A DNA stretch of 34,309 nt from Clostridiales bacterium (lineage in GTDB: Bacteria > Bacillota > Sulfobacillia > UBA995), in assembly GCA_003517845.1 (NCBI GenBank), contig DOZU01000206.1, positions 1 to 34,309 on the forward strand. The letters are read 5' to 3'. Below are positions 10,990 to 26,002 of the stretch, piece by piece (the first letter of the stretch is position 1; every line of letters starts with the position of its first letter). Position numbers and translations under genes: made by a program. The notes below the pieces were generated by a model. That model saw only the letters and a list, made by a program, of their open reading frames with translations. It did not search any database and had not been told where the DNA came from.

Positions 10990-11090
10990 GGCAAGACCTT
11001 CATGCTCATCGGGGTACCCCGGGGCAGGAAAGCCACGGGTCGGCGGTAGCCCTCATTGTCGCGGCAGGGCAGGTCGCGTCCATATTGGCG

Positions 11091-11609: not shown

Positions 11610-11951
11610 GGCTGAAGTATATCACCAGATCCGCCCCTTGCGGCAGCACTCCGTCAAGGATTACCGGCGGCGCGCGTTTCCCTCGAGCAGGGCTGACACG
11701 GCGATGTCCTCGCCTACATCTTGAGTTGCTCTCATTCCTGAAGTTTCCTGGAGGATCCCTTTTTCTGCAAGGGTACTGCCTCCCGCGTGACGATGTCAAC
11801 GAGTCCGGCGCAGCCCCTTTCGGACGGGGTTGCTCGTTGCGGCTTCCAGGGAGATTGGTGGGTGAGGGCGAATGTCCCAGGGGCAGTCCAGCCCGCTTTG
11901 GCGCGCGCAGCCGGCAGGCAGGCAATCGGCAGGATGGGGAGGAGTTGGGAC

Positions 11952-14759
11952 ATGGTTGACCGCACCCGGCGGGAAGCGGATGGTCCGGCGTGGCATTGCC
12001 TTGATGCCGAGGAGACCCTTACCCGCCTGGATACGGGTCCGGGCGGACTTGGCGCCGGTGAGGCGGCGCGTCGCCTGGCCCAGCACGGTCCCAATGAGTT
12101 GGCCGACCGCGGAGCCCGGCACCCGGCACGGCTGTTTCTCGAGCAGTTCACCTCATTGATGGTGGTCATATTGCTGGGGGCGGCGGGCCTGTCGGTCGCC
12201 CTCGGCAAGCTGCTTGAGGCCGGGGCCATCCTGGCCATCGTTTTCCTGTTCGCCGTGCTGGGCTTCGTGCAGGAGTACCGGGCGGAGCGGGCCATCGCTG
12301 CCCTCAAGCGGCTGGCGGTCCCCTGGGTGCGCGTCACCCGGGACGGGCGCCAGCAAGCGATCTCGGCGGCGGCGCTGGTGCCCGGCGACCTGGTTTCGCT
12401 TGAGACCGGCAACTTCGTGCCGGCCGACCTGCGCCTGCGCGAGACGGTCAATCTCAGGGTTCAAGAAGCGGCGCTCACCGGCGAATCGGAGCCGGTGGAG
12501 AAAGACGCGGTCAGCCTGACCGATCCCGCTCTCCCCCTCGGCGACCGCAGGAACCTCGCCTACCGGGGCACAGTGGTGAGTTACGGGCGGGGCGAGGGGG
12601 TGGTGGTAGCCACCGGCATGGACACCGAACTCGGCCGCATCGCCGGCCTGCTCCAGGAAGTACGGGACGAGGCCACTCCCCTGCAGCGGCGGATTGAGCG
12701 TGTCGGTAAGCTGCTGGCGGCGGGAGGCACGGTGGTGGCCGTGCTGGTCATGGCGGCCGGTTTGCTGGCGGGAGAGCCCTGGGAGGTGATGGTCCTCGCC
12801 GCCATCAGCGTGGCGGTGGCCGTCGTCCCCGAGGGCTTGCCGGCGGTGCTCACTTTCACCCTGGCCCTGGCCACCCAGCGCATGCTCCGCCGCAACGCCC
12901 TCATCCGGCGGCTGCCGGCCGTGGAGACCCTGGGGTCGGTGACGACCATCTGCTCGGACAAGACGGGTACGCTCACCGAGAACCGCATGACGGTAACCAT
13001 ATTGGACGTGGCCGGCCACCGCCTGGATCTCGTCGAGACCATGCGCCGGCGCATGCCGGCGGTGGAGCCGGGCAGGTCCGAAGCTGGCGGCTTCTCCGCG
13101 ATCGGCCTGGTCCTGGCCGGCGGCGCCCTGTGCAACGACGCGGTGCTGCAAGCTGAAGCCCGACCCGGGCACTTCCACGCTCTGGGCGATCCCACCGAGG
13201 GGGCGTTGCTGGTCGCGGCCGTTCATGGCGGGATGAGCAAGGCGGACCTCGAGCGGGTCATGCCCCGGGTGGGGGAGTTGCCTTTTGACTCCGACCGCAA
13301 GCGGATGACCACCGTTCACCGTCGCCCCGGTGCCGGCGCCGAGGTGCCATCCCCGGTGCTGGCGGCGTGGGGGGAGGGCGGTCTCGCGCCGGATTGCCCG
13401 CATATAGTCGTCACCAAGGGGGCGGTTGACCGGATCCTCGAGGTCACGGAACGGGTATGGGATGGCGATGGTCCGGTATCCCTCGACGCCGACTTCCGGA
13501 GACGGATCCAGGCTGCCCATGAGGACCTGGCCGACGACGGCATGCGGGTGCTGGGAGTGGCCTTTCGGCCGGCAGCGCGGGATGTCCCGGCCCACGAACT
13601 CGAGCGGGGCCTCATCTTCCTGGGAATGGTGGGGATGATCGATCCGCCGCGGCCAGAAGTTCGCGCCGCTATCGCCACCTGCAAGGCTGCCGGCATCCGT
13701 CCGGTGATGATCACCGGCGACCATCCCCTGACCGCAGCGACCATCGCCCGCGACCTGGGGATCGGGAGCGACGGCAGTCCGCTTACCGGAGCCATCCTCG
13801 ACGGGATGGGGGATGAAGAGCTGGAGCGCATCGCCGAGCAGACGGCGGTGTACGCCCGCGTGAGCCCCGAGCACAAGCTGCGAATCGTCCGGGCCCTCCG
13901 CCGCCGGGGCCACGTGGTCGCCATGACCGGGGATGGGGTGAACGACGCGCCGGCCTTGCGGCTGGCCGACATCGGGGTGGCCATGGGGGTGACGGGGACG
14001 GACGTCACCCGGGAGGCGGCCGACATCGTGCTGCGCGATGACAACTTCGCGACCATCGTCGCCGCCGTTGAGGAAGGTCGAACGGTATACGACAATATCC
14101 GGCGCTTCGTGAAGTTCGCAGTAGCCGGCAACATCGGCAAGGTTGGGGCCATGCTGCTGTGGCCGATGTTGTCCGCCGCCGCGGGCGCACCGCCCGGGTC
14201 CGCCGTCGCCCTGCTGCCCCTGCAACTCCTCTGGCTGAACCTCATGACCGATGGGCTGCTGGGCATGTCCATGGGCCGGGAACCGGCGGAGGAGAACGTG
14301 ATGGCCCGGCCGCCCAACCCACCGCGAGCCGGACTCTTCACCGGCACCGGCTGGCATGTCCTGTGGGTCGGCGGCTTCATCGGCGCCACCTCCTTGGCCG
14401 TCGGCGCGTGGTACTACGGGCGGGGGCTCGAGCAGTGGCAGACCATGATCTTCACCACTATGGGCTTGACTCAGGTATTCCATGCCCTCGTGACCCGTTC
14501 CGCGTACCGGTCCATCTTTCGGATGAGTCCCGTGAGTAATCCGCTGCTACTGCTCATCGTCCCCCTGGTAGTCGCCATGCAGTTGGCTGCAGTCTACCTC
14601 CCCTTCCTGCGGGAGGTGCTGCTGCAACTGGTGCCGCTTTCCGGGCCTGACCTGGCGGTGAGCGCGGCCGTCAGTGCCTCTTTACTGGCAGCGGTGGAGT
14701 TCGAGAAGCTGTTCATCCGCCGGAGGCGGCAGGGCGAGGCGGGTGTCCCGGGATGTTGA
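11952..14759 (+). CDS. P-type cation-transporting ATPase, P2A (Ca2+-ATPase-like)
   Basis: CSDKTGTLTENRM phosphorylation motif, PEGLPAVLT (M4), MITGDHPLTA, MTGDGVNDAPAL and NLMTDGLLG (M6). GGGGAGGAG lies 7 nt before the ATG at 11952, whereas the ORF-track start at 11787 adds 55 non-conserved residues. Confidence 0.9.
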   Translation: MVDRTRREADGPAWHCLDAEETLTRLDTGPGGLGAGEAARRLAQHGPNELADRGARHPARLFLEQFTSLMVVILLGAAGLSVALGKLLEAGAILAIVFLFAVLGFVQEYRAERAIAALKRLAVPWVRVTRDGRQQAISAAALVPGDLVSLETGNFVPADLRLRETVNLRVQEAALTGESEPVEKDAVSLTDPALPLGDRRNLAYRGTVVSYGRGEGVVVATGMDTELGRIAGLLQEVRDEATPLQRRIERVGKLLAAGGTVVAVLVMAAGLLAGEPWEVMVLAAISVAVAVVPEGLPAVLTFTLALATQRMLRRNALIRRLPAVETLGSVTTICSDKTGTLTENRMTVTILDVAGHRLDLVETMRRRMPAVEPGRSEAGGFSAIGLVLAGGALCNDAVLQAEARPGHFHALGDPTEGALLVAAVHGGMSKADLERVMPRVGELPFDSDRKRMTTVHRRPGAGAEVPSPVLAAWGEGGLAPDCPHIVVTKGAVDRILEVTERVWDGDGPVSLDADFRRRIQAAHEDLADDGMRVLGVAFRPAARDVPAHELERGLIFLGMVGMIDPPRPEVRAAIATCKAAGIRPVMITGDHPLTAATIARDLGIGSDGSPLTGAILDGMGDEELERIAEQTAVYARVSPEHKLRIVRALRRRGHVVAMTGDGVNDAPALRLADIGVAMGVTGTDVTREAADIVLRDDNFATIVAAVEEGRTVYDNIRRFVKFAVAGNIGKVGAMLLWPMLSAAAGAPPGSAVALLPLQLLWLNLMTDGLLGMSMGREPAEENVMARPPNPPRAGLFTGTGWHVLWVGGFIGATSLAVGAWYYGRGLEQWQTMIFTTMGLTQVFHALVTRSAYRSIFRMSPVSNPLLLLIVPLVVAMQLAAVYLPFLREVLLQLVPLSGPDLAVSAAVSASLLAAVEFEKLFIRRRRQGEAGVPGC

Positions 14760-16375
14760 CCATGCGAGAGGCTCTGAACATAGGAGCGCTGAACCGCGCG
14801 CGTCTCGTCGCGGGGGCCGCCGGCCTGGACCGGGAAGTGGGCTATGTGGATGTGCTCGAGGTGCCGGACGCCGAGGGCTGGTTCCGGCCGCATCTCCTGG
14901 TGCTGACTACCGCTTACGCGGTGCGCGACGATGCCGGAGCCCAGCTCCGGCTGGTAGAGGGGTTGGGGAGGGCGGGGGCCGCCGGCCTGGCGGTCAAGGT
15001 CGGGCGTTTTCTCACCGTCGTCCCTCAGGAGATGTGTGAGGCCGCGGACAGCGCGGGACTGCCCCTCCTGGAGATTCCGGCTGATATAGCCTATGTGGAC
15101 ATAACCCATCCTTTGCTGGGGGCGATCATCAGCCGACAGACCCTGCAGCTCCAGTATTCCGCCAGCGTCCGCGGCCAGTTCACCCGTATGGTACTGGAGG
15201 GCCACGGGCTTGAGGCGGTCGCGGCCGAACTGGCCCGGCTGGTTAACGGCCTGGTGGTGATAGTGGGTGAGGAGGATCGGCTGTTAGCTTCGGCTTCAGC
15301 CTTGCCGGGCGACCCGGGTACTCCGGCGCAACCGGGCGCGGCCGGGGAGCGGGAGACGGCGGGCGAGATGGCAGGGCTACAGGTAACCACGGTACCGGTT
15401 TCGGTGAAAGGCATCCGCTATGGTCAGTTGCGGACCTGTACGCGGCAGGCACTCAGTGAACTGGAACGTATGGCGGTGGACCATGCCGTGACGGTGACCG
15501 CCATCGAACTGATCAAGGGAAGGGCGGTACAGGAAGCGGAACGGCGGCTGGCCCAGGATTTCGTGGAGGACCTGATCGCGGGGAACCTACTTGAGCGCGA
15601 CCTGGTCCATAGCCGGGCGGCGGCGATGGGCATCAATACCGGCAAGCGCTTGGCGGTAATGATCGCCGACATCGATGCCTTCGCCGATTTCATTCGCCGA
15701 CACGGTTTGAGCGAGGTCGATGCCCAGGAAACGAAGGGTCAGTTGTTCGCCGCCGCTCGCCGCGCGATTGCCCGCCTTGGCAAGCGGGCGGTCGTCGTGA
15801 GCCGCAGCGACAGCGTCCTTTGCTTCGTCACGCCCGATGCTCAGGGGGATGAAGCGGGGGGTCGCGCCGAGATCACGGCAATCGCCCGCGAGATCCAACG
15901 GCAACTGGAGCGAAGTGCCGAAGGGGTGACCGTGTCCATCGGGCTGAGCACGCTTTGCACCGACCTCCTTGAGCTGGGTGACAAGTGCCGTGAGGCCCGC
16001 AAGGCGCTAGAGATTGGACGGTTGGCGGGTGGCAGGGGTGGAATCCACCACTATCAGGGTTTGGCCCTGCAACGGTTCCTGCACGATATGGGCGCGTCGG
16101 CTGAAGCCAAGGCCTTCTGCCGCCGGGTGCTGGGCGGAGTGCTCGACTACGACGAGGCCCACGGCACGTCCCTGCTGAGGACCCTGCAGGTCTTCCTCGA
16201 GGAAAAAGGCGTGGTAACCGCCACGGCGGACCGGCTGTTCGTCCATCGTAACACGCTCAGCTATCGTCTACAGCGGGCAAGCGCTTTGTCAGGCAGGGAT
16301 CTCGCCGACGGGGATGCCCGCTTTGAACTGCTACTGGCGATGAAGCTGCTGCCCTTCGTCCAGGCGGTCATTTAG
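14753..16375 (+). CDS. PucR-family transcriptional regulator
   Basis: N-terminal PucR-like domain (REALNIGALNRARLVAGAAGLDREV..VDVLEVPD) and C-terminal HTH (TATADRLFVHRNTLSYRLQRA). The start overlaps the ATPase stop. Confidence 0.85.
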   Translation: MLTMREALNIGALNRARLVAGAAGLDREVGYVDVLEVPDAEGWFRPHLLVLTTAYAVRDDAGAQLRLVEGLGRAGAAGLAVKVGRFLTVVPQEMCEAADSAGLPLLEIPADIAYVDITHPLLGAIISRQTLQLQYSASVRGQFTRMVLEGHGLEAVAAELARLVNGLVVIVGEEDRLLASASALPGDPGTPAQPGAAGERETAGEMAGLQVTTVPVSVKGIRYGQLRTCTRQALSELERMAVDHAVTVTAIELIKGRAVQEAERRLAQDFVEDLIAGNLLERDLVHSRAAAMGINTGKRLAVMIADIDAFADFIRRHGLSEVDAQETKGQLFAAARRAIARLGKRAVVVSRSDSVLCFVTPDAQGDEAGGRAEITAIAREIQRQLERSAEGVTVSIGLSTLCTDLLELGDKCREARKALEIGRLAGGRGGIHHYQGLALQRFLHDMGASAEAKAFCRRVLGGVLDYDEAHGTSLLRTLQVFLEEKGVVTATADRLFVHRNTLSYRLQRASALSGRDLADGDARFELLLAMKLLPFVQAVI

Positions 16376-17319
16376 GCCGGCGACGCATCCCTGCCGGGTG
16401 AGTTCAGGTGAGACATACTGCCGTAGATGGCCTGCAGCCGGTCGAACTCGCCGGCGTCATGGAAGCGGCAACGACCGGCGGTGAAGGCCTTGGCAACTTC
16501 CAGACAGAACCTCACCGCGGCCTCGATGTCCACAACTTGGCTGGCGCCGGTGGCCGGGCCGGGGACGGCCGCCTCCGCGGTGAGGGCTACCCCGACCACC
16601 GGAACGTTGCAGGCAGTGGCAGGCTGTAGGATGCTGTTAATGTGCCGGAGGCCGTTGGCGTAAGGGGTGATATCCTGAGTTGCCAGGGGGCAAACCGCGG
16701 GCAACTGTCCGGTAACCTGCTGCATGATATCCAGGAGGTCGTCGGCCGGCGGCAGGATGAAACCTTCTCTCACCGTGGGGGTGATGGCGAATCCCCTCCG
16801 GTTGATGATCCGGTTGCCGCGGGTAGTATCGACGGACAGGATGGCATCCATGGCCGGATCCACTTCGTGCCGCACCAGGGTAGCTGTGTCCACCGGCGAT
16901 CCCATGAACGGCACCGGGTGCCGCGGCAGGGTCGGGGCACTGGGACAGATATGCGTGGTGATGATCACGTCCCCGGCGAGCGCATCGCCTTCAGCAGCCA
17001 TATCCGCGAGTTTCAGGGCCGACGCCAGTGCGACCACCGCGCCATCGGCATCGGACACCAGGCCGATCAAGGCGGGGCGTGCGCCCACGCCGCCCAAGCG
17101 GCCGATTATCCCGAGCGTTGGGGCAGTTCCGCCCCGCTGCCGGCCATCGCTGCCCGGCACGACGACCTTGAGGAAGTCGGTGCCGGATCCTTCGCCCCCC
17201 AGGCGCAGGGTGGTGATATCCTTGAGACCGCGGGCACTCAGCCGGGACGCGACCAACTTACCCCCAGCCCGGGGCGTATCCAGCATATCCCAGGCATCCA
17301 GGACCTGCCGCATTGCCAC
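16372..17319 (-). CDS. DUF1177-family protein
   Basis: GSGTDFLKVVVPG...APTLGIIGRLGGVGARPALIGLVSDADGAVVALA...DVIITTHICPSAPT...PVPFMGSPV matches my memory of DUF1177 proteins. AGGGAGGGA lies 6 nt before the GTG at 17319. Confidence 0.65.
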   Translation of the reverse strand: MAMRQVLDAWDMLDTPRAGGKLVASRLSARGLKDITTLRLGGEGSGTDFLKVVVPGSDGRQRGGTAPTLGIIGRLGGVGARPALIGLVSDADGAVVALASALKLADMAAEGDALAGDVIITTHICPSAPTLPRHPVPFMGSPVDTATLVRHEVDPAMDAILSVDTTRGNRIINRRGFAITPTVREGFILPPADDLLDIMQQVTGQLPAVCPLATQDITPYANGLRHINSILQPATACNVPVVGVALTAEAAVPGPATGASQVVDIEAAVRFCLEVAKAFTAGRCRFHDAGEFDRLQAIYGSMSHLNSPGRDASPA

Positions 17320-17496
17320 ACGGCTTCCCTCCCTGAATCGGTCAGACTGCAAGTCCATTGTAACCCCGGTCGAGGGTAGCCGGTACGGGCAGCGAATCTA
17401 AACCGGGCCGCCGATCCCTGTGCAGCCTGCCCGAGTCACCGGATTGCTTGGGCAGCCGGCACACGTCTGGGCGACAACTTTCGTGCGCCCCGGCCA

Positions 17497-17525
17497 TTGC
17501 CAAGCCCGACAATATGTCGCAAAAT
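17497..17525 (+). promoter_or_regulatory. possible promoter TTGCCA - 17 nt - CAAAAT for the OPT operon
   Basis: Hexamers with 17-nt spacing, about 55 nt upstream of the OPT start. Both are weak matches. Confidence 0.25.
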
Positions 17526-17581
17526 TCGTGGTGGACCAATGATGATGAGGATGAAGCGATGACGGAGAGGGGGCATGCAGT

Positions 17582-19210: not shown

Positions 19211-19301
19211 GCAAGGGGGGCCGGGAGGGGGTTCTGTCCTGAACACGCCTGTGGCTAGTTCAGGGCGGGCCCCCTCCCTGGCGTTTGAGGAGGGGGCCGC
19301 A

Positions 19302-19985
19302 ATGACCGTGTCCCGCCCGTGGATCGGGCTGATTCGGGTGTTGACCACCGATGACCCCGGCGTGTTGGGCGCGCATGAGCGCCTGCTCCGTTTGGCCTAC
19401 CCGGGGCTTGCGGTGAGGACGGCCTGCATTCCCGATCAGCCGCGCGGGGTTCATGACGAGGTCTCGCTGGCGGCGGCTGCGCCGAAAGTAGCCCGACTGG
19501 CCGGGGAGTTGGCCGAGGGCGGAGCGGCCGCCGTGATCATCAGTTGCTGCGCCGATCCCGGTCTGGAGTTGTGCCGGGCTGCGGTCAGCGTGCCGGTCAT
19601 CGGTGCCGGCAGGGCGGCGGCCGCGATGGCGCTGCTCCCGGGAGGGCCGGTGGGTGTGCTCGGTCTCACGACCGAGGTCCCGCTGCCGGTTGTCCAGGTG
19701 CTGGGTCGGGCGCTGCACCGGTCGGCCGCGCCTCACGGCGTGCGGACCACCTTGGACCTCATGAAGGCGGACGCCATGGACGCCTGCATCAAGGCTGCCC
19801 GCGAGTTGAGGGCCGCGGGAGCAAGGGTGATCCTGGTGGCATGTACGGGGATGTCCACCGCCGGCGTGACCGCTCGTTTGCGCCAGGAGCTGTCGCTGCC
19901 GGTGATCGACCCGGTCCTGGCTGCCGGCGGGGCCGCCATCACGATGCTGGCTCACGAGGGGGTGATCGCCGGTTGCGCGAGTTGA
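19302..19985 (+). CDS. Asp/Glu/hydantoin-racemase-superfamily protein 1
   Basis: IGLIRVLTTDD...AAVIISCCADPGL...VIGAG...VILVACTGMS...LPVIDPV. Both Cys motifs are present. GAGGAGGGGG lies 5 nt before the ATG at 19302, and the ORF-track start at 19065 overlaps the OPT gene. Confidence 0.75.
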   Translation: MTVSRPWIGLIRVLTTDDPGVLGAHERLLRLAYPGLAVRTACIPDQPRGVHDEVSLAAAAPKVARLAGELAEGGAAAVIISCCADPGLELCRAAVSVPVIGAGRAAAAMALLPGGPVGVLGLTTEVPLPVVQVLGRALHRSAAPHGVRTTLDLMKADAMDACIKAARELRAAGARVILVACTGMSTAGVTARLRQELSLPVIDPVLAAGGAAITMLAHEGVIAGCAS

Positions 19986-21058
19986 CCCGGGCGGATGTGG
20001 AAGCGGCCGTGGTCGGCGGGGCCCTGCTGGGCGGTGGAGGCGGCGGTTGGCCGGCCGATGGGCGCCGGCTGGGAGCGCTCGCCGTCAGCATGGGTCGGCC
20101 CACGCTCGCCTCGATCGAGGAGTTGCCGGCCGATGCCCTGGTCTTCACCGTGTCCCTGGTGGGCGCGCCGGCCGCAACCGAGCGCTATCTCGAACCGATC
20201 GATCATCTGCGGGCGGTGGAACTGGCGATCGATGCCGCCGGCTGCCGGCCGGCCGCCTTCATCGCCAATGAAAACGGGGCGACGGCCACCGTAAACGGCT
20301 GGTTGCAGTCGGCCTGTCTGGGTTTGCCCGTCCTGGATGCTCCCTGTAATGGCCGGGCGCACCCGACGGGGACGATGGGGGCGATGGGTCTGCACCGGCG
20401 GGCGGGATACGTGTCGATCCAGGCCGCGGTCGGCGGCGACCACCGCCGGGACCGACACGTGGAACTGGCGGTGCGAGGTCCCTTACCCCTGGCCGATGCC
20501 CTGGTCAGGCAGGCGGCGGTGCACGCCGGCGGGCTGGTCGCGGTGGCCCGGAACCCGGTGGAGGTGGGCTACCTCAAGGAGCACGCCGCGCCCGGGGGGA
20601 TAAGCCAGGCCATCGCCGTCGGCAAGCTGCTAATCGAATCGCCTCCGGGCGAGCGGGCGGAGGCGGTGGCCAGCCGGCTCGGAGGCACGGTCGTCGCCCG
20701 GGGACGGGTGGGGTCGTACCGGCTGGAAACCCGGGGAGGATTTGACGTCGGCCGGATGGAAGTCGCATCGGACCAAGGCACTTTCCGACTGACCATATGG
20801 AACGAGTACATGACCATGGACGGACCGGGAGGACGCCTGGCGACTTTCCCCGACCTGATCGCCACGCTGGACCGCGAGGGCTGGCCGCTGATCAGCGCCG
20901 CGATCGAGGAGGGGACGGACCTCGACTTGCTGATCGCGCCGGCCGGGCGGCTGGTGCTGGGAGCGGGCATGCGCGACCCGGAACTATTTCGGCTGGTGGA
21001 GGAGGCGGTGGGCGAGCCAATGCTCGCCCATGCCTTTCCCGGATTCGGAGGTGGATGA
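19973..21058 (+). CDS. DUF917-family protein
   Basis: LTRADVEAAVVGGALLGGGGGG...FIANENGATATVNGW...PVLDAPCNGRAHP...TIWNEYM. The poly-Gly and ENGG-like motifs are typical of DUF917. The start is uncertain (TTG 19973 or 19982, or GTG 19997). The ORF-track start at 19544 runs in another frame through the racemase gene. Confidence 0.65.
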   Translation: MRELTRADVEAAVVGGALLGGGGGGWPADGRRLGALAVSMGRPTLASIEELPADALVFTVSLVGAPAATERYLEPIDHLRAVELAIDAAGCRPAAFIANENGATATVNGWLQSACLGLPVLDAPCNGRAHPTGTMGAMGLHRRAGYVSIQAAVGGDHRRDRHVELAVRGPLPLADALVRQAAVHAGGLVAVARNPVEVGYLKEHAAPGGISQAIAVGKLLIESPPGERAEAVASRLGGTVVARGRVGSYRLETRGGFDVGRMEVASDQGTFRLTIWNEYMTMDGPGGRLATFPDLIATLDREGWPLISAAIEEGTDLDLLIAPAGRLVLGAGMRDPELFRLVEEAVGEPMLAHAFPGFGGG

Positions 21059-21062
21059 AGCC

Positions 21063-21824
21063 ATGGGTCTTCGGGTGATGCCGGCGCGAGAATTCGCCCC
21101 GGCATCCGCTGTCAAGCCCCTTCCCGGGCTGGCGGACCAGCCCCGGCGCATTGGCGCCATCACCATCGGCCAGTCGCCACGCGCCGACGTGATCCCCGAG
21201 ATGACGCCGTTCTTTGGCCAGGACGTCGACATCGTGGAGCGCGGACTGCTGGATGGGAGGAGTGCGCCCGAGATTCAAGCCATGAAGCCGCCGCCGGGCG
21301 AGGCGGTCCTCGTCAGCCGATTGCGGGACGGGACGGAGGTGTCCATCTCCGCCGGATGGGCCAGAGAGGCGCTGCCCGCCGCCATCGCGGAACTAGAGGA
21401 GCTGGGCTGTTACTTGATCGTGCTCCTGTGCACCGGCGAGTTTCCCGGGTTGTCTTCCCGAATACCGCTGGTCTTGCCGCAGCGGCTCCTGTTCCATACC
21501 GTCAGCGCCCTGGCGCGCGAACTGCACCTGGGCGTGATCGTGCCCTCACCCCTTCAGATATCCGGTGCCACCGCGCGGTGGCGGCCGGCGGCGGCAAGGG
21601 TCACGGCGGTCTCGGGCTCGCCTTACGGCGAAGGACGAGAGCTGGATGCCGCCGCCCGGAGGCTGGCGGTGGAGGGGGTGGACATCGTGGTCCTCGACTG
21701 CATGGGGCACGCTATGCGGCACCGGGCACTGGTCCAAGGAGTGGTCGGCCGGCCCGTGATATTGGCCCGGACGCTGGTAGCGCGGGTTCTGGGCGAACTC
21801 CTGGGAGCCGCTCCCACCCCATGA
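21063..21824 (+). CDS. AroM-family protein
   Basis: IGAITIGQSPRADVIPEM...VLLCTGEF...GVIVPSPLQ...VDIVVLDCMGHAMRHRALV...PVILARTLVARVLGELL. This aligns by eye with E. coli AroM (ILTIGVVP...IMLDCLGFHQRHRDLL...VLLSNVLIARLAAELL). GGAGGTGGA lies 7 nt before the ATG. Confidence 0.7.
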   Translation: MGLRVMPAREFAPASAVKPLPGLADQPRRIGAITIGQSPRADVIPEMTPFFGQDVDIVERGLLDGRSAPEIQAMKPPPGEAVLVSRLRDGTEVSISAGWAREALPAAIAELEELGCYLIVLLCTGEFPGLSSRIPLVLPQRLLFHTVSALARELHLGVIVPSPLQISGATARWRPAAARVTAVSGSPYGEGRELDAAARRLAVEGVDIVVLDCMGHAMRHRALVQGVVGRPVILARTLVARVLGELLGAAPTP

Positions 21825-22549
21825 CCGCTTCGATCCGGCTCAAGGTCATCGTCCCCGTCACCTTCCCGGGCTGGGACGCCGATGTGGCAGCGATCTGCCG
21901 CTCGGCGGCCGACACTGCCACGCGGATCGAAGTGGTACACCTTGCCCGGGGGCCGGCGTCGATAGAATCGATGTTCGATGAAGAGTGGGCTGCTCTCCCC
22001 ATCCTGGAAGCCGTCGCTGCGGCGGCCCGGGACTGCGACGCGGTCGTCATCTACTGCTTCGGCAATCCTGCCCTGGAGGCCGCCAAGGAGGCGGTCACCA
22101 TCCCCGTGGTCGGGCTGGGGGAGGCGGCTCAGGTGGCGGCAATGCCGCTAGGGGAGCGACTGGGCATCCTGGCTACCCTGTCCGGCACGGTCGGCCGTCA
22201 CTGGCGCAAGGCTCGAGCCTCGGGCACGGCGTCCAAGCTGGTGTCGATCCGCGCCCTGGACATCCCCGTGCTCGACCTGGGCGATTTCAGCCGGGTGCGG
22301 GAGCGGGCGCTCAGCGTGGTCGAGCGGATGGTGACGGAAGATGGCATCGACGTACTCATCCTCGGCTGCGGGTCGATGGTGAACCTGGCCCCGGCGCTGG
22401 AGCCGGCGTTCGGCTTGCCGGTGGTGGTGCCGGGACTTGCCGCCGTGAAGCTGGCGGAACTATATGCACGGGCGGGCCTTGCGCAAAGCAGGCGCGCCTA
22501 TCCCCTCCCCCGCGAGAAGGAAAGGACGGACATGCATGGACTGGATTGA
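21821..22549 (+). CDS. Asp/Glu/hydantoin-racemase-superfamily protein 2 (HyuE-like)
   Basis: IRLKVIVPV...AVVIYCFGNPALEAAKE...PVVGLGEAA...VLILGCGSM...LPVVVPGLAAVK. The ATG at 21821 overlaps the AroM stop (ATGA). Confidence 0.75.
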   Translation: MTASIRLKVIVPVTFPGWDADVAAICRSAADTATRIEVVHLARGPASIESMFDEEWAALPILEAVAAAARDCDAVVIYCFGNPALEAAKEAVTIPVVGLGEAAQVAAMPLGERLGILATLSGTVGRHWRKARASGTASKLVSIRALDIPVLDLGDFSRVRERALSVVERMVTEDGIDVLILGCGSMVNLAPALEPAFGLPVVVPGLAAVKLAELYARAGLAQSRRAYPLPREKERTDMHGLD

Positions 22550-23579
22550 ACGCGACCGCATCGTCCCCGGGGTGGAGAACATGCTGCGCGCGAACCTCGG
22601 GCTGCGGCCCGGTGAGCGGGTGCTCGTGGTCACCGACGTGTTATCCCCGGACCGTTGGCGCGAGTATGCGAGCGGTGACCTGGAAGGGATGCTCCGCCGC
22701 TCTTATCTGGCCCGCCTGGTAACAGAGGTCGCCGCAGCATCGTTCCCCGAGAGTCGAGTAGATTTCTACGCCTTCGAAGCCACGTGCCAGTCGGGCAAGG
22801 AACCGCCCCCGCCGGCCGCCGCCAGATTCAAGGAGACGGACGTCCTGGTGGCCATCGTCTCTTTCTCCTTGAGCCACACCGCCGCCCGGGAGGAGGCATG
22901 CCGGGCAGGGGTGCGAGTTGCCAGCATGCCGCGGTTCATCCCCGAGATGTTCTACCCGGGCGGGCCGATGGCGGTGGACTACACGGCCATCGCTGCGGAG
23001 ACGGGGATGATCGCCGCGTGGCTGACCGCCGCCGACAGCGCCGCCGTACGTTCGCCGGACGGGACCGACCTTCGCTTCAGCCTGCGGGAGCGGCAAGGGT
23101 TGAACGACAACGGACTGTACACTGCCGCCGGTTCCTGGGGCAATCTGCCGGCCGGGGAAGCCTACGTTGCTCCCGTCGAAGGGTCCGCGGAGGGCCGCAT
23201 CGTGGTCCGCCGCCGGTGGTTCCCCGGGCTGGAGGAGGAGGACCTCGTCCTGTCCTTCGAGCGGGGGGAAGTGGTCAAGGTGACGGGTGGCGGTGATGTG
23301 GGCCGCAAGCTCGGTGTCTTTCTTGGTCTGGGGGGTACGGGAGGGCGCGCCCGCCGGCAGCTCGCCGAACTCGGGGTCGGCACCAACCCCAACGCCCGGC
23401 GGACGGACATCGTGCTCGAGGCGGAGAAGATCCGCGGCACGGTACACCTGGCCATCGGCGATAACAGCCACATGGGCGGACGCAACGCGGCGGACTTCCA
23501 CCAGGACTACGTCATCCCCGAGGCGGAACTCATCCTGGATGGGGTGACGCGGATGAAAGGCGGCAGGCTATTGCCGTAG
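22536..23579 (+). CDS. M29-family (aminopeptidase T/S-like, COG2309-type) protein 1
   Basis: LGLRPGERVLVVTD...GTDLRFSL...NLPAGEAYVAPVEGSAEGRIVV...GTVHLAIGDN. Confidence 0.65.
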   Translation: MDWIERDRIVPGVENMLRANLGLRPGERVLVVTDVLSPDRWREYASGDLEGMLRRSYLARLVTEVAAASFPESRVDFYAFEATCQSGKEPPPPAAARFKETDVLVAIVSFSLSHTAAREEACRAGVRVASMPRFIPEMFYPGGPMAVDYTAIAAETGMIAAWLTAADSAAVRSPDGTDLRFSLRERQGLNDNGLYTAAGSWGNLPAGEAYVAPVEGSAEGRIVVRRRWFPGLEEEDLVLSFERGEVVKVTGGGDVGRKLGVFLGLGGTGGRARRQLAELGVGTNPNARRTDIVLEAEKIRGTVHLAIGDNSHMGGRNAADFHQDYVIPEAELILDGVTRMKGGRLLP

Positions 23580-23623
23580 GGGCCCTGGTTGACGCGAGAT
23601 TTCTCAGGAGGGATCGGCAAGCC

Positions 23624-24688
23624 ATGGAACTGGCAACGGGGACCGAACCGCGCCCCGAGTACCTCGCATTCGAGTTGGCCGGGGCCGCTCGTAAACTGGT
23701 CGAAGGCGTCATGCTCGTCCGTCCCGGGGAGAATGTGGTCATCACCGCCGATACCGCAGCCGATTGGCGGGTGGTGGAGGCGACGGCGCAAGCCGCCCAT
23801 GCCGCCGGCGCCATCGCCACCGTCCTCCTCTATGAGACCCGGCCCACCGCGGTGGTCGAGCCACCGGCCCCGGTGGCGGCGGCGGTCGCGCGGTCCAATG
23901 TATGGATCGAGTTCGCTTACGCCTATGTGCTGCACACTCCCGCTTTCCGCGCCGCCATGACTGCCGGGTCAAGGTACATCTGCCTGACGGGCATGGACGT
24001 TCCGATGATGGTGAATACGATCGGCAGGGTGGACTACCCCCGGCTGATCGCGCTGGGCGAGACGCTCCGCGGGTTGGTGGAAGCGGCCGACGAGGTGCGA
24101 GTATCCAGCCCTGGCGGGACCGACCTGTTAGCCTACAACCGCGGCCGGAAGGTCCGGCAATCCGGCAAGTTGGCCGATACCCGCGGCGAACCGATCATGC
24201 TGGGCGGCCAGGTATCCTGGTGCCCCATGGAAGAGACCATCCAGGGACGGCTGGTGTTTGACGGCGCCCTGTGGCCTCCGATGGAACTCGGGCTGCTCCG
24301 GGAGCCGGTGACCCTGACCCTGGAGAAGGGCGCGATCGTCGCCATCGACGGCGGTAGCGAGGCGCGGACCTTCGAACGTTGGCTCCGAAGCTTCCGCGAC
24401 GAGAAGATGCTCTGGCTCGCCCACTACTCGCTCGGCTTCAATCCCGGGGTGACCCGGCCGACCGGGCGGATCGTGGAGGACGAGCGGGTGTTCGGCTGCA
24501 TCGAGTTCGGGTTCGGCAGCCAGGGAGCGCAGATCCGGGGCAAGACCTGGTCCGCCGCTTCGCACACCGACGGCGTGGTGCTCGCCCCGTCCATCTATCT
24601 CGACGGCGTTCCCTTGGAAGTGGAAGGCGCCTATGTACACCCGCAGGTCGTCGCCGCCTGCCGGGCACTGGCGCTCCCCGGATACTGA
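23624..24688 (+). CDS. M29-fold protein 2, NicX (2,5-dihydroxypyridine dioxygenase)-like branch
   Basis: VRPGENVVITADT...GGTDLLAYN...GRLVFDGAL...LAHYSLGFNPG...ASHTDGVVLAPSIYLDG. The C-terminal His motifs resemble NicX as I recall it (HIGWGL..., HLDIPLRNCDIYLDD). AGGAGGGA RBS upstream. Confidence 0.55.
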   Translation: MELATGTEPRPEYLAFELAGAARKLVEGVMLVRPGENVVITADTAADWRVVEATAQAAHAAGAIATVLLYETRPTAVVEPPAPVAAAVARSNVWIEFAYAYVLHTPAFRAAMTAGSRYICLTGMDVPMMVNTIGRVDYPRLIALGETLRGLVEAADEVRVSSPGGTDLLAYNRGRKVRQSGKLADTRGEPIMLGGQVSWCPMEETIQGRLVFDGALWPPMELGLLREPVTLTLEKGAIVAIDGGSEARTFERWLRSFRDEKMLWLAHYSLGFNPGVTRPTGRIVEDERVFGCIEFGFGSQGAQIRGKTWSAASHTDGVVLAPSIYLDGVPLEVEGAYVHPQVVAACRALALPGY

Positions 24689-24752
24689 CAGGAGGACGAA
24701 TGCGGCGCGCGTCGAAGGACCCGAGCGGGCCGAACCAGGGGAGGTAGGATAC

Positions 24753-25061
24753 ATGCCGGCGCAGAAGGGTTTCTTCGCCTCGTTGTTCGACGTCGAGTTC
24801 TCCGAGCTGATCACCCCGCGCATCATCAGGGTCGTCTTCATGATCGGGCTTGCGTTCACCGGCCTCGCCTCGCTGATGTGGACCTTGACCATGCCGCCCC
24901 TGGCGGGTGGTGCGATCCTGCTGGGCCTCATCTTCTCCGCCCTCTTGTTCCTCGCAGGGGCGATCTGCCTTCGGATCTGGCTCGAGGTCATCATGGTCGT
25001 GTTCCGCATTGCCGACGACCTGCGGGCGGTCCGAGCCTCCGGTCAAGCGCCTCGGGAATAG
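24753..25061 (+). CDS. DUF4282-like small membrane protein
   Basis: GFFASLFDVEFSELITPRIIRVVFMIGL followed by two TM helices and RIWLEVIMVVFRIADDL. GGGGAGGTAGG lies before the ATG at 24753. Confidence 0.6.
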   Translation: MPAQKGFFASLFDVEFSELITPRIIRVVFMIGLAFTGLASLMWTLTMPPLAGGAILLGLIFSALLFLAGAICLRIWLEVIMVVFRIADDLRAVRASGQAPRE

Positions 25062-25240: not shown

Positions 25241-26002
25241 TCAGGTCGCAGGTCCCGCACCGAAGTCCCGCAGCCGCACCGGGAGGTAGCGCGGGCCCCA
25301 GTCGCCCGGGCCGGCCTCGAAGACGCCGGCACAGGGGGCGCCGCAGTTACGGCAGCCCCCCTCCGGAGTCAGGTTCCATGCGGTGATCGCGTACGACCGG
25401 CGGCCGATGAGGATGGTGCCACACTCGGGGCAGCAGGTGTTTTCGCCGGCGAAATCGCGGATGTTGCCGGTATACGCGTAGCGGGCGCCGTTCGCCTGTG
25501 CGATGTCCCGTGCCCGGTGGAGGGCGGCGGGGGGCGTGGGTGGATGGTCCCGCAGCCTCCAATCCGGGTGAAAGGCCGTGAAATGAATCGGCACCTCCGG
25601 GCCAAGTTCGTCGACTATCCACCGGGTCATGGCGTCGACCTCCGCCGGCGAGCCGTTTTCGCCGGGTATGATCAGGTGGGTGATCTCGAGCCAGACGCTC
25701 GTGTCCCGCTTGAGGTAGAAGCAGGCCAAGTTGCAGCCGGCGGTGCCGAAGGATAGCACGGGTGTCCCGGGCAAGAAGTGATAGAGCGGTTTCTTCTCAA
25801 CCGGGTCCACGCAGAAGCCGCTGGACCGGCCGTAAGCCGTCAGTACGATCCGGCCCTGCCGGCAGGCTCGGATGAAGCAAGGCCCCCGCTGCCCCTCGCG
25901 TAGCCGGCAGTGGCGGGGGCAGAGATCGCACTGGATGCGGCCGTCAGGCCTGCCGTGCCAGTACTTGGAGGGCACTACGGGACCGGTTCTCGCTGCATCC
26001 AA
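25241..26002 (-). pseudogene. amrS: AmmeMemoRadiSam-system radical SAM enzyme with in-frame internal deletion of the catalytic core
   Basis: The N-terminal part (WHGRPDGRIQCDLCPRHCRLREGQRGPCF...DPVEKKPLYHFLPGT..LSFGTAGCNLAC) and the C-terminal part (VWLEITHLIIPGENGSPAEV...IHFTAFHPDWRL...PPTP...YAYTGNI...CCPECG...CRNCG) are both canonical. They are joined at CNLACFY|LKRDTS (about 25715-25720). The third Cys of CX3CX2C and the segment I would expect between the two parts are missing. Confidence 0.7.

Follow-up and report, generated by a model that had tools for sequence, protein, structure and literature searches.

Classical hyu operons encode a permease, a hydantoin racemase, a hydantoinase and an N-carbamoyl-amino-acid amidohydrolase. 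The bacterial ergothioneine catabolic cluster contains a thiohydantoin desulfurase of the DUF917 family as well as the carbamoylase ErtE (NCBIfam NF058529 and NF058540); to our knowledge, DUF1177, AroM and NicX-like proteins are not part of this pathway. The dpp/ykf genes of Bacillus subtilis encode a peptide ABC importer, a D-aminopeptidase, an L-Ala-D/L-Glu epimerase and a gamma-D-Glu-diamino-acid peptidase, for the recycling of peptidoglycan peptides.

Non-CDPS cyclodipeptide-oxidase (CDO) clusters have been described bioinformatically (Andreas & Giessen, Nat Commun 2024; PMC11055893). That paper reports an enrichment of PF01177, DUF917, AroM, OPT/ABC peptide transporters and peptidases near these oxidases; it assigns no function, and diketopiperazines are the only known CDO substrates. 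Diketopiperazines resist ordinary peptidases; strains that degrade them are known, but the genes are not named in the paper that describes them (PMC3852281).

We have analyzed a related gene set on a 34,309-nt contig (DOZU01000206.1) of a Clostridiales bacterium, the whole of which will be referred to as the window. The system comprises a peptide importer together with three racemase-like and four hydrolase-like enzymes, and probably serves the breakdown of small compounds derived from peptides, either cyclic or with D-residues, by a route as yet uncharacterized.

Organization of the locus

The genes are a real operon. An earlier reading of this DNA from the sequence alone had proposed a single operon, flanked by a regulator gene and with one gene divergent from it, which is borne out by the ORF and junction coordinates (Table 1), and the boundaries, overlaps and junctions that it gave all hold on re-check. 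Neighboring genes of the operon overlap by 13, 4 and 14 nt or are separated by 4, 44 and 64 nt, with one spacer of 91 nt. The stop codons of the convergent PucR and DUF1177 genes overlap at 16372-16375. The family names were confirmed with Pfam and NCBIfam profile searches, NicXb alone having no match in the local Pfam copy.

Table 1. Features of the locus, in window coordinates.
Feature	Position	Strand	Description
PucR	14753-16375	+	PucR N-domain, GGDEF-like domain and C-terminal HTH_30
DUF1177	16372-17319	-	Divergent from the operon here; start GTG 17319 or ATG 17313
Control region DUF1177/OPT	17320-17581	.	Divergent intergenic region
OPT	17582-19210	+	Oligopeptide transporter, membrane importer, 542 aa; TTG start
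Structured spacer OPT/Rac1	19211-19301	+	GC-rich hairpin, then Rac1 ribosome-binding site
Rac1	19302-19985	+	Two-cysteine Asp/Glu/hydantoin-racemase fold
DUF917	19973-21058	+	S-Me-THD-like; TTG start
AroM	21063-21824	+	Putative racemase-superfamily member, two invariant cysteines
Rac2	21821-22549	+	Second two-cysteine racemase-fold enzyme; first gene of module B
NicXa	22536-23579	+	M29/NicX fold
NicXb	23624-24688	+	NicX fold, paralog of NicXa
DUF4282	24753-25061	+	Small membrane protein, PF14110; last operon gene

The start codon of the OPT gene is ATG at the same position in a locus with 87% identity (L001). For DUF917, a 100%-identical protein of 361 aa is on record (P0241), and the NCBIfam model aligns from position 1. 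The in-frame ATG at 21030 for AroM has no ribosome-binding site. The two starts given for DUF1177 are preferred because they lie behind a ribosome-binding site (AGGGAGGGAAG) and match the N-termini of homologs; a start at the ATG at 17358 would be possible too. The DUF4282 protein (60.4 bits in Pfam) is a lineage-specific accessory, found among related loci only in the syntenic L001.

Conservation of the gene set

Partners within 7 kb of DUF1177 were counted in 48 species-level genomes with enough flanking sequence. AroM is the commonest partner (29/48 loci), followed by NicX-like proteins (19/48), DUF917 (18/48), PF01177 racemases (15/48), OPT (14/48) and PucR (10/48). In 12/48 loci no partner family is found within this distance at the thresholds used, and DUF1177 can therefore work in other contexts.

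The full set is found again in seven or more phyla, drawn from both domains. The cluster is present in Thermococci, Halobacteria, Thermoplasmata, Bacillota, Chloroflexota, Synergistota, Spirochaetota, Desulfobacterota, Actinomycetota and Enterobacterales, and also on a plasmid island flanked by IS elements. Peptide-fermenting anaerobes and hyperthermophiles are rich in the system. The sequence-only reading had considered a chance juxtaposition in this one genome. The recurrence across phyla speaks otherwise, and the co-localization is far beyond chance.

In the operon of the window, two modules that are conserved independently of each other are fused, Rac1-OPT-DUF917-DUF1177-AroM (module A) and Rac2-NicXa-NicXb (module B). 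The order of module B recurs in L037 and L089, and L088 and L089 have NicXb together with Rac2 and Opp ABC genes but lack DUF1177.

Accessory genes in related loci encode the dipeptidase PepE, a PepD-like dipeptidase, ArgE/DapE deacylases and one amidase of the hydantoinase/carbamoylase family. The latter is the last gene of the L090 operon, and scores 468 bits with the model for ErtE (N-carbamyl-L-glutamate amidohydrolase; cut-off 520). The Enterobacterales version has the order OPT-DUF1177-AroM-PepE-racemase, and that of Salinigranum has an additional deacylase of the AstE/AspA family.

In L087, L090, L009 and L055, the operon itself contains a CDO pair (PF00881 and PF19585). Such pairs occur in a few percent of related loci, and the CDO is a rare accessory rather than a core component of the DUF1177-centered cluster. 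The window has none. This absence, together with the rarity in related loci, counts against diketopiperazines as substrates.

Importer and racemase-fold enzymes

The OPT protein matches PF03169 with 77.3 bits, and orthologs with 43-56% identity are located in the same cluster in 14 of the 48 loci. Loci without OPT have in its slot an ABC system of the Opp/Dpp type, which has an SBP_bac_5 binding protein together with oligo_HPY ATPases. The recurrent importers (OPT or Opp/Dpp ABC) are of the peptide type; transporters of the SBP_bac_5 and OPT families carry non-peptide solutes as well. An NCS1 permease (in Pfam, cytosine/purine, uracil, thiamine and allantoin permeases) neighbors the set in 6 loci.

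Rac1 matches PF01177 (85 bits) and PDB entry 2EQ5 (E = 6.5e-53), and by sequence comparison it is the ortholog of the uncharacterized P. horikoshii protein solved in that entry. Rac2 has a stronger match to PF01177 (142.9 bits). With PDB matches to 3qvj (E = 2.4e-28) and to the allantoin racemase 5lfd (E = 3e-23), it is nearest to the allantoin/hydantoin racemases. The two-cysteine motifs reported earlier for both proteins are present, and they are conserved in relatives, with Cys82 of Rac1 kept in 23/24 sequences and Cys181 in 24/24.

AroM matches PF07302 (242.6 bits) and the NCBIfam model PRK10481 (208.8 bits, above the cut-off of 198). Its two cysteines are kept in 47/48 and 46/48 sequences. 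An hhalign comparison with the Rac profiles gives a probability of 96% (E = 2e-9), and both cysteine columns align with the catalytic cysteines of the racemases. This points to AroM as a member of the racemase superfamily, an assignment that is new.

Rac2 also matches OpaE (PDB 9qbx, E = 7e-9), an epimerase from the family of Asp/Glu racemases, which acts on a cyclized peptide (PMC12661438). Epimerases such as OpaE and CDOs are typical tailoring enzymes, and the tie to them would fit a cluster that tailors a peptide-derived secondary metabolite, a biosynthetic reading raised as one possibility in the 2024 paper (PMC11055893). We consider it very unlikely, as no CDPS, NRPS or ATP-grasp ligase is found among the annotated genes of the window or the recurrent neighbor families of related loci, and the clusters hold importers, hydrolases and catabolic-type regulators and occur commonly in hyperthermophilic archaea and in anaerobes that ferment peptides.

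DUF917 and the peptidase-fold enzymes

The DUF917 protein matches both domains of the family now named S-Me-THD_N/C in Pfam (PF06032, 65 bits; PF20906, 75 bits). Its AlphaFold2 model has a pLDDT of 93, and the sole PDB match is the uncharacterized 2O3I. It aligns over the full length with two NCBIfam models, scoring 305.7 bits with that for thiohydantoin desulfurase (cut-off 440) and 286.1 bits with that for S-methyl thiohydantoin desulfurase (cut-off 450). The tie of the family to thiohydantoin desulfurase noted earlier is seen in these alignments, but the scores are below both equivalog cut-offs, and on this comparison the protein is a paralog and not an equivalog. It is a candidate ring-acting hydrolase. 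The only characterized relatives of DUF917 act on thiohydantoins, which counts against diketopiperazines.

In 27 of the 28 loci that have both genes, DUF917 immediately precedes DUF1177 in the same orientation. The order DUF917 > DUF1177 > AroM does not vary, and the genes overlap or are separated by tiny gaps. The divergent DUF1177 gene described in the sequence-only reading is correct for the window but not typical, the usual place of this gene being inside the operon between DUF917 and AroM.

DUF1177 matches PF06675 with 414 bits and has more than 7,400 homologs. The window protein shares 62-68% identity with those of Pyrococcus/Thermococcus, and mean column identity in the family alignment (A1) is 73%. 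The top Foldseek matches of its AlphaFold2 model (pLDDT 81, pTM 0.86) are M17 and M28 aminopeptidases (E ~1e-8, TM 0.45-0.55). There is no sequence match in the PDB, and profile comparison shows no relation to M20. The model suggests a hydrolase candidate with a zinc-exopeptidase-like fold, the likeness to peptidases being at the fold level only.

NicXa and NicXb share fold and family with NicX (PDB 7CN3) and the M29 enzymes PepS, AmpT and AmpS, and at ~350 aa they are shorter than the M29 aminopeptidases (~410 aa). Their family profile matches NicX (7cn3) at 6e-28, PepS at 2e-10 and AmpT at 4e-5. NicXa itself is just above the cut-off for PF02073 (M29; 28.6 bits, cut-off 27), and matches 7cn3 with E = 6.5e-7. 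Its motifs GEAY, AELG, LEAEK, VHLA and HxD, in columns kept across the NicXa group, resemble the Glu/Glu/His/His/Asp motifs of M29 enzymes. NicXa keeps an M29-type dinuclear metal-ligand set and is a putative aminopeptidase or dipeptidase.

NicXb matches 7cn3 with E = 1.7e-9, and a 92%-identical homolog carries PF26233 (NicX). It has 1,220 homologs; among the 120 listed, the length is fixed at 354 aa and the identity is 62-92%. The M29 Glu/Glu/His positions are Gln/His/Glu in NicXb, and a NicX-like His and HxD set remains, at positions that we take to be the iron ligands of NicX. With this NicX-type His/His/Asp set, NicXb is a putative mononuclear metallohydrolase.

NicX is a 2,5-dihydroxypyridine dioxygenase. 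A dioxygenase role is implausible for NicXa and NicXb because close orthologs are found in the strict anaerobes Pyrococcus, Thermococcus and Moorella. No nicotinate-pathway genes are found in the window.

With so many exopeptidase-like genes, the operon could catabolize linear small peptides with D- or isomerized residues, such as stem-peptide fragments of peptidoglycan or, from aged proteins, peptides with D-Asp/isoAsp. Epimerization of a terminal residue in the peptide, or of freed D-Asp/D-Glu, would fall to the racemase-fold enzymes, the three peptidase-fold enzymes would then hydrolyze the peptide, and DUF917 would be accessory. The peptide-type importers, the Asp-X dipeptidase PepE in Enterobacterales, the Salinigranum deacylase and the abundance in peptide-fermenting anaerobes and hyperthermophiles, where racemization is fast, are consistent with this, and Asp/Glu racemases are the best-known members of the PF01177 superfamily. 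We nevertheless hold it to be unlikely. The tight coupling of DUF917, whose family chemistry is on a cyclic thioureide, to DUF1177 is left unexplained, as is the CDO pair in some operons, and Rac1 and Rac2 are nearer to hydantoin/allantoin racemases than to Asp/Glu racemases.

Regulator and non-coding elements

The PucR protein matches PF07905 (112.7 bits), PF17853 (GGDEF_2, 59 bits) and PF13556 (HTH_30, 76.7 bits), and reaches no NCBIfam equivalog. Its gene adjoins the same gene set in Moorella (L003) and in L014, L025, L063, L083 and L090. From adjacency, PucR is likely a dedicated regulator of the operon.

In B. subtilis, purine catabolism is controlled by PucR, and the sequence-only reading had drawn a purine/ureide link from this family. 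The link is weak, since PucR accompanies the DUF1177 set in only 10/48 loci, mostly of Bacillota, and IclR, AsnC/Lrp or GntR regulators are found in its place in other lineages. An already characterized pathway, either ergothioneine catabolism or purine/allantoin catabolism under PucR, could be read from the regulator, the resemblance of Rac2 to allantoin racemase and the DUF917 family of the ergothioneine desulfurases. It is hardly credible given the sub-cut-off DUF917 scores, the change of regulator with lineage, the absence of an equivalog match for PucR, and a window without ergothionase, thiourocanate hydratase, allantoinase, allantoicase, uricase or xanthine dehydrogenase.

The DUF1177/OPT intergenic region is 83% identical to its equivalent in L001. 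An imperfect inverted repeat of 27 nt (17409-17473) and, on the + strand, a -35/-10-like pair (17497-17525) are located within it, and the region may serve as operator or promoter. The OPT/Rac1 spacer has a long GC hairpin at ~19217-19285 (dG -56.8 kcal/mol, z = -2.9 relative to shuffles), with no Rfam family match and without the T-run typical of a terminator. The hairpin may be a processing, stabilizing or attenuating element.

Proposed function of the operon

Our preferred reading, held tentatively, is a substrate-inducible catabolic route that imports small peptide-derived compounds, likely cyclic dipeptides (2,5-diketopiperazines) or hydantoin-like amides, and is probably controlled by the adjacent PucR-type activator. 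Stereochemically heterogeneous compounds would be converted to free amino acids; the candidates are 2,5-diketopiperazines or related five- or six-membered cyclic amides, for example 5-substituted hydantoins. After uptake by the OPT permease, the C-alpha centers beside the ring or peptide carbonyls would be epimerized by the cofactor-independent two-cysteine enzymes Rac1, Rac2 and AroM, so that all stereoisomers funnel into one hydrolyzable form. The ring would then be opened or activated by DUF917, whose paralogs attack the 2-thiohydantoin ring by hydrolysis, maybe jointly with DUF1177 (the two genes are normally coupled in translation). The linear product would be cleaved by the exopeptidase-fold metalloenzymes DUF1177 (M17/M28-like), NicXa and NicXb. 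The kinship of Rac2 with OpaE and the diketopiperazine substrates of CDOs, whose genes are found in some of the operons, are in line with this reading.

The general logic of uptake, racemization and ring-opening/hydrolysis was already that of the sequence-only reading; its hydantoin route is a narrower version. A route for 5-substituted hydantoins or thiohydantoins would proceed by C5 racemization, DUF917-type ring attack, a peptidase-fold protein as a new type of hydantoinase, and decarbamoylation. It draws on the full-length DUF917 alignments, the best PDB matches of Rac2 (hydantoin/allantoin racemases), the NCS1 permease in 6 loci and the ErtE-like amidase of L090. We find this narrower version rather improbable: apart from L090, no carbamoylase was identified in the window or the related loci examined, the dominant importers are peptide-type and not NCS1, three peptidase-fold enzymes exceed the needs of such a route, and few natural 5-substituted hydantoins are known to us. 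The peptide-type importers, the dipeptidases and deacylases, and the CDO pair make cyclic dipeptides or peptides at least as likely as hydantoins.

Comparison with known systems

The pathway had been proposed as undescribed. No characterized pathway that maps onto the gene set, and no functional study of it, was found in the literature, but its families had been noticed in 2024, the same ones being enriched in the CDO clusters (PMC11055893). That survey was seeded on the CDO, and in the portions used here it does not mention DUF1177 or NicX-like proteins (PMC11055893). The CDOA/CDOB pair is inside otherwise identical operons in the four loci named above, and is missing from the window.

The logic of hyu operons is alike, with an importer, a two-cysteine racemase and hydrolases that convert a racemic cyclic amide to an L-amino acid, and the distance of Rac2 from allantoin/hydantoin racemases is about that among characterized family members. 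On the other hand, the annotated genes of the window include no dihydropyrimidinase-type hydantoinase and no carbamoylase, as claimed earlier, and no HyuA/HyuB hydantoinase. The importer is peptide-type rather than NCS1, and besides DUF917 the set has three proteins with a racemase fold and three with a peptidase fold.

Similarity to the ergothioneine cluster is found in the full-length alignment of DUF917 with the desulfurase model (306 bits, cut-off 440) and in the ErtE-like amidase of one related operon (L090), while ergothionase and thiourocanate hydratase are absent here. The B. subtilis dpp/ykf system likewise combines a peptide importer, an epimerase and peptidases for D-residue peptides, but its enzymes are entirely different, and its families (enolase-superfamily epimerase, DppA and NlpC/P60 peptidases) have no member in the window operon.

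Organization of the operon

The operon region contains exactly the genes listed in the sequence-only reading, as judged from the open reading frames (ORFs), codon-position GC content and the start sites, and ribosome-binding sites back the gene starts. The DUF917 gene call is matched by a database protein of 361 residues with 100% identity. The OPT transporter gene starts with TTG in the window and with ATG in a relative of 87% identity. For DUF1177, GTG 17319 and ATG 17313 are each located behind a strong ribosome-binding site, and an alternative start, ATG 17358, is also open. The genes of the operon overlap by 13, 4 and 14 nt at three junctions and are separated by gaps of 4, 44 and 64 nt at others. 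PucR and DUF1177 are convergent, and their stop codons overlap. In the closest relative, the metagenomic contig L001, these two genes are separated by an inserted nucleotidyltransferase/HepT toxin-antitoxin pair, at the site of the overlapping stop codons in the window.

Positions of the features in the window and in related loci. Window genes were assigned by listing the ORFs and examining their codon-position GC and start sites.
Locus	Feature	Position	Strand
Window	Upstream block	691-10989	
Window	PucR	14753-16375	+
Window	DUF1177	16372-17319	-
Window	Inverted repeat (candidate operator)	17409-17473	
Window	-35/-10-like pair	17497-17525	
Window	OPT	17582-19210	+
Window	Spacer hairpin	19211-19301	
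Window	Rac1	19302-19985	+
Window	DUF917	19973-21058	+
Window	AroM	21063-21824	+
Window	Rac2	21821-22549	+
Window	NicXa	22536-23579	+
Window	NicXb	23624-24688	+
Window	DUF4282	24753-25061	+
Window	253-aa ORF	25241-26002	-
Window	Large multidomain ORF	27117-29198	-
L001	Toxin-antitoxin insertion	11043-11892	
L085	Compact plasmid cluster	6577-11984	
L090	Neighbors of the operon	201-6958	
L090	Carbamoylase-family amidase	15996-17234	
L010	~283-aa family	2146-2997	
L014	~283-aa family	12570-13421	
L024	~283-aa family	4621-5463	-
L025	~283-aa family	10691-11614	
L058	~283-aa family	10855-11811	
L069	~283-aa family	2147-2986	
L074	~283-aa family	10954-11802	
L083	~283-aa family	7785-8681	
L084	~283-aa family	10952-11803	

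The 91-nt spacer between the transporter and the enzyme genes forms a GC-rich hairpin that is long and stable (dG -56.8 kcal/mol, z = -2.9) and lacks a T-run. A riboswitch or other known RNA in this spacer or in the leader is rejected, as an Rfam search of both found nothing above noise and the fold in the spacer is simply a GC hairpin. The hairpin might set the ratio of transporter to enzyme expression, or it might stabilize the mRNA. The divergent control region between DUF1177 and OPT has 83% identity as a whole to its counterpart in L001. Within it, an imperfect inverted repeat (27 nt, 74% complementary) is located just upstream of a -35/-10-like pair and is, from its sequence, a candidate operator.

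Pfam and NCBIfam confirm the assignments of PucR, DUF1177, OPT, DUF917, AroM and DUF4282. The transporter belongs to the OPT family (PF03169, 77.3 bits, cut-off 25.8), and DUF4282 is a lineage-specific tail gene. The regulator has both the N-domain (112.7 bits) and the HTH_30 domain (76.7 bits) of the PucR family. It reaches none of the NCBIfam equivalogs compared (PmfR, AdeR, CdaR and Rv1453; the top score is 96.5 bits on PmfR, versus 800), a set in which the purine regulator PucR of B. subtilis has no model under its name. The regulator of the cluster differs by lineage, being PucR, IclR, AsnC/Lrp or GntR, so its type here says nothing specific about purines. Purine-catabolic genes are also absent from the window, and the link to purine or ureide catabolism drawn from PucR in the sequence-only reading is weak.

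The window also has an unrelated upstream block, with a xylose-isomerase-like TIM barrel, a tungsten-type aldehyde:ferredoxin oxidoreductase accompanied by a ThiS-like gene, several dehydrogenases, an FGGY kinase, a cupin-type glucose-6-phosphate isomerase, a KDPG aldolase and an MFS transporter. The operon is followed closely, on the other strand, by a 253-aa ORF with coding-like codon bias (GC3 0.83), which has no Pfam match and is not conserved in L001. Further downstream, a large ORF of unusual architecture combines copper-amine-oxidase N-terminal-like, staphylococcal-nuclease and trypsin-like protease domains.

Conservation of the gene cluster

DUF1177 has more than 7,400 homologs at 90% clustering, found across both prokaryotic domains and also on mobile elements. 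With each species represented by a single genome, a scan yielded 558 DUF1177 loci, and 80 of them were kept. The bacterial loci are from Bacillota, Chloroflexota, Synergistota, Spirochaetota, Desulfobacterota, Beta- and Gammaproteobacteria, Actinomycetota, Verrucomicrobiota and Bipolaricaulota, and the archaeal loci are from Thermococci, Thermoplasmata and Bathyarchaeia. Neighboring families within 7 kb of DUF1177 were counted in the 48 loci flanked on each side by 6 kb or more. AroM is present in 29 of these, NicX-like proteins in 19, DUF917 in 18, a PF01177 racemase in 15, OPT in 14 and PucR in 10, and the full set of five or six families is found in 9 loci. By simple inference, the chance expectation for a single-copy gene in such a span is well under 1% of genomes.

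The order of the genes is conserved as well. Of the 28 loci having both DUF917 and DUF1177, 27 have DUF917 directly upstream. AroM follows DUF1177 downstream in 42 of 49 loci, on the same strand and in most cases no more than 150 nt away. The arrangement is racemase-DUF917-DUF1177-AroM-NicX-OPT-NicX in Pyrococcus horikoshii and PucR-racemase-OPT-DUF917-DUF1177-AroM-NicX in Moorella thermoacetica, and in L001 the synteny with the window extends from a P-type ATPase through DUF4282. As the set recurs across many phyla in fixed order, chance juxtaposition is rejected; the co-localization seen in the sequence-only reading extends to both domains and is not unique to the window genome. The divergent orientation of DUF1177 in the window is a derived rearrangement, because the gene order elsewhere is fixed.

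The operon is a fusion of two modules, Rac1-OPT-DUF917-DUF1177-AroM (module A) and Rac2-NicXa-NicXb (module B), since the latter block also occurs without DUF1177, DUF917 and AroM. This is the case in two loci (L088 and L089), where the block is found with an Opp-type ABC importer. NicXa and NicXb of the window have 61% and 70% identity, respectively, to those in the Rac2-NicXa-NicXb block of a Bipolaricaulota genome.

The Klebsiella pneumoniae plasmid pRHB26-C08_2 (L085) carries the system in a compact form, IclR-OPT-DUF1177-AroM-PepE-racemase. The module is mobile, as this copy is flanked by IS66, IS110 and IS5 on a conjugative plasmid. A haloarchaeal plasmid carries the order ABC importer-DUF917-DUF1177-AroM-aminopeptidase-racemase-AstE/AspA. 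A megablast search of 5,426 complete E. coli genomes found no copy of the enterobacterial island at that sensitivity.

Nine genomes have a further family of about 283 residues within the cluster, in most of them between DUF1177 and AroM; it is absent from the window. It has a cysteine-rich motif at the C-terminus and remains without a Pfam match at a threshold as loose as E = 0.1.

The racemase-fold enzymes

Rac1 (85.4 bits) and Rac2 (142.9 bits) both belong to PF01177 (cut-off 31), and neither reaches an equivalog among the NCBIfam models. Their cysteine motifs, SCCADPG and ACTGMS in Rac1 and YCFGNPA and LGCGSM in Rac2, place one Cys in each pseudo-symmetric half. The cysteine columns are kept in 23/24 and 24/24 relatives, in agreement with the family and two-cysteine pattern proposed from sequence alone. 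Rac1 matches the uncharacterized structure 2eq5 with E = 6.5e-53, and it is the ortholog of this structural-genomics protein. Rac2 matches PDB entries 3qvj (E = 2.4e-28) and 5lfd (E = 3e-23). It is nearest to the hydantoin and allantoin racemases, and by this similarity it may racemize 5-substituted hydantoins or allantoin. [quoted passage not shown]

AroM belongs to its named family by both PF07302 (242.6 bits, cut-off 23.8) and NCBIfam PRK10481 (208.8 bits, cut-off 198). Comparison with racemase profiles by hhalign places it in the same superfamily as Rac1 and Rac2 (probability 96.2%, E = 2.2e-9). In this alignment its LLCTGEFP segment lies against racemase IsC..DP and its VLDCMG segment against L.CTG, and the two cysteines are nearly invariant (47/48 and 46/48 sequences). 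As the cysteine pair of AroM falls on the catalytic pair of the racemases, the operon has three two-cysteine enzymes of the epimerase type.

DUF1177 and DUF917

DUF1177 scores 414.4 bits on PF06675 (cut-off 25). For a protein without an assigned function it is extremely well conserved, with a mean column identity of 73% across bacteria and archaea, and the window protein has 62-68% identity to those of Pyrococcus or Thermococcus. The invariant motifs are VSD(A/G)DGA, THICP, DTT(K/R)GN, TQDITPY and H-NS--QP, and the invariant residues are D103, D105, H136, C138, E165, D177, D229, H239 and E287. The SDADG motif may be akin to the M17 aminopeptidase signature, NTDAEGR. The structure model of DUF1177 (pLDDT 81, pTM 0.86) is matched in Foldseek by M17 (4x2t) and M28 (1qq9 and 1amp) enzymes, with E of about 1e-8, probability 1.0 and TM of 0.44-0.56. 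The model thus suggests that DUF1177 shares the fold of the zinc-dependent exopeptidases (M17/M28/M20). No relationship to M20 or M28 is detected in sequence, as phmmer finds no match in the PDB and hhalign against the M20 profile gives a probability of 0.8%; the similarity seen is in the fold alone.

The DUF917 protein has both domains of its family (PF06032, 65.4 bits; PF20906, 74.9 bits; cut-off 27), now named S-Me-THD in Pfam. The thiohydantoin desulfurase mentioned in the sequence-only reading is indeed a member, as confirmed by full-length alignments to NCBIfam models. The window protein scores 305.7 bits on the thiohydantoin desulfurase (NF058529, cut-off 440) and 286.1 bits on the S-methyl thiohydantoin desulfurase (NF058532, cut-off 450). 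With scores well below both cut-offs, it is a paralog and not an equivalog of these enzymes. Each of the best 120 homologs listed is either unnamed or named no more precisely than 'DUF917 family protein'. A hydantoinase-like fold, suggested for DUF917 in PMC11055893, is rejected, as the AlphaFold2 model (pLDDT 93) matches only the uncharacterized DUF917 structure 2O3I (TM 0.70) and has no structural match among amidohydrolases or HyuA-type proteins.

The NicX-like proteins

Both NicXa and NicXb match the crystal structure of NicX (7cn3; 1.7e-9 for NicXb), and PF26233 ("NicX") is precomputed on homologs with 84% and 92% identity to them, respectively. The NicX-like proteins divide cleanly into a NicXa group and a NicXb group. 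The two genes had been read as M29/NicX-like. The M29 part of this holds for NicXa, with a marginal PF02073 score (28.6 bits, cut-off 27) and a family profile that matches PepS (2e-10) and AmpT (4e-5). The NicXa group keeps the motifs GEAY, AE(L/F)G, GTxHxAxG and HxD, and therefore the Glu/Glu/His/His/Asp set of the M29 aminopeptidases, at the five metal-ligand positions. NicXb is NicX-like and not M29, with no match to this or any other family in the Pfam copy searched. Three of its M29 ligand positions are changed (Glu to Gln, Glu to His and His to Glu), which leaves the His and HxD arrangement of NicX; the His aligns with the histidine of NicX 'SHIGWG', at the iron site, and is accompanied by HTD.

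Function as a NicX-type dioxygenase is implausible, because orthologs in the same cluster occur in the strict anaerobes P. horikoshii and M. thermoacetica. The window has no nicotinate-degradation (nic) genes.

Possible substrate and catabolic route

The mechanism with the best support, by analogy and from sequence, is a catabolic route of four stages. The substrate would be imported, epimerized at the Cα atom by Rac1, Rac2 and AroM, hydrolyzed at the ring by DUF917, possibly with DUF1177, and then cleaved in the manner of an exopeptidase by DUF1177, NicXa and NicXb.

Cyclic dipeptides are the favored substrate, as the importers are of peptide type, the accessory enzymes are dipeptidases, and there is a linkage to cyclodipeptide oxidase (CDO). 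In loci without OPT the transporter slot is usually taken by an Opp/Dpp-type ABC system (about 21-31 loci), and an NCS1 permease is found in six loci. ArgE/DapE-type M20 deacylases directly adjoin DUF1177 in Bacillales, and the Asp-X dipeptidase PepE and a PepD-like dipeptidase are also recurrent. The M24 gene of the Bathyarchaeia loci is not counted as evidence, because it proved to be a housekeeping methionyl aminopeptidase. The CDO A/B pair is located in four related operons (L009, L055, L087 and L090), which links this set of genes with the "non-CDPS CDO clusters"; tblastn of two such pairs gave no match in the window better than E = 0.5. Racemases, DUF917, AroM, OPT/ABC transporters and peptidases were reported to be enriched in those clusters, with no function assigned (Andreas & Giessen 2024, PMC11055893).

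Linear peptides with a D-residue are a serious rival for a system with peptide-type importers and dipeptidases. Cyclic dipeptides are also favored because there is a precedent for an epimerase acting on cyclic peptides, and because diketopiperazines resist ordinary peptidases and genes for their degradation were not found in the literature. Strains that degrade diketopiperazines have been described, and these rings are not opened by ordinary peptidases (PMC3852281). In the literature searched, no diketopiperazine hydrolase or degradation gene is reported, and there is no study of the function of DUF1177, AroM or DUF917 within such a gene context.

Hydantoin-like rings are the other serious rival, and a single locus, L090 (Thermoanaerobacteraceae), argues for a hydantoin or ureide substrate. 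The last gene of its operon is a carbamoylase-family amidase that comes close to being an ErtE equivalog (468 bits versus a cut-off of 520), found only there among the loci examined; this same locus has the CDO pair. Neighbors of the L090 operon resemble dihydropyrimidinase, M20, OTCase and dihydropyrimidine dehydrogenase.

With cyclic dipeptides as the favored substrate, a far-reaching proposal would be that microbes owe diketopiperazine catabolism, for which the genes have been missing, to the DUF917-DUF1177-AroM core together with the accessory racemases and the enzymes of M29/NicX type. It would comprise a new class of cyclic-dipeptide amidohydrolases and cofactor-independent diketopiperazine epimerases, conserved from hyperthermophilic archaea to enterobacterial plasmids. 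We consider this proposal rather unlikely.

The gene set is among the more widely distributed uncharacterized catabolic sets, and five of its families (DUF1177, AroM, this DUF917 subfamily and the two NicX-like subfamilies) have no member with an experimental test in such a setting. Once the substrate is identified, thousands of genes could be annotated together and AroM would gain a function, some 40 years after it was first sequenced. That sequence was obtained next to aroL in E. coli (reference 57 of PMC11055893). If the substrate is a cyclic dipeptide, the enzymes behind diketopiperazine degradation would be identified, with uses in removing diketopiperazines from food and drugs and in producing enantiopure dipeptides. 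The system would also explain the presence of CDO homologs in anaerobes without a cyclodipeptide synthase. Tractable hosts include M. thermoacetica, Paenibacillus macerans, Serratia marcescens, the Klebsiella plasmid and Thermococcus litoralis, and a crystal structure is already in hand for one component (2EQ5).

Comparison with known systems

The hyu hydantoin-utilization operons have a similar logic, with importer, racemase and hydrolase. However, neither a hydantoinase (amidohydrolase or HyuA/B) nor an N-carbamoylase is found in the window, as the sequence-only reading had noted for the dihydropyrimidinase type, and the operon is not of the hyu kind. The ergothioneine pathway has DUF917 in common with the window, but identity with it is rejected on the equivalog scores and the missing partner genes. 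No lyase or urocanase-type family, as expected for ergothionase and thiourocanate hydratase, is matched by Pfam among the scanned ORFs of the 34-kb window. The window operon is a DUF1177-centered version of the gene set found around orphan CDOs. The non-CDPS CDO cluster is defined by CDOA (PF00881) and CDOB (PF19585) (PMC11055893), a pair that the window lacks. The operon is of the importer-racemase-hydrolase catabolic kind, and what is new is that it is built from families of untested function and that its distribution is unusually wide.
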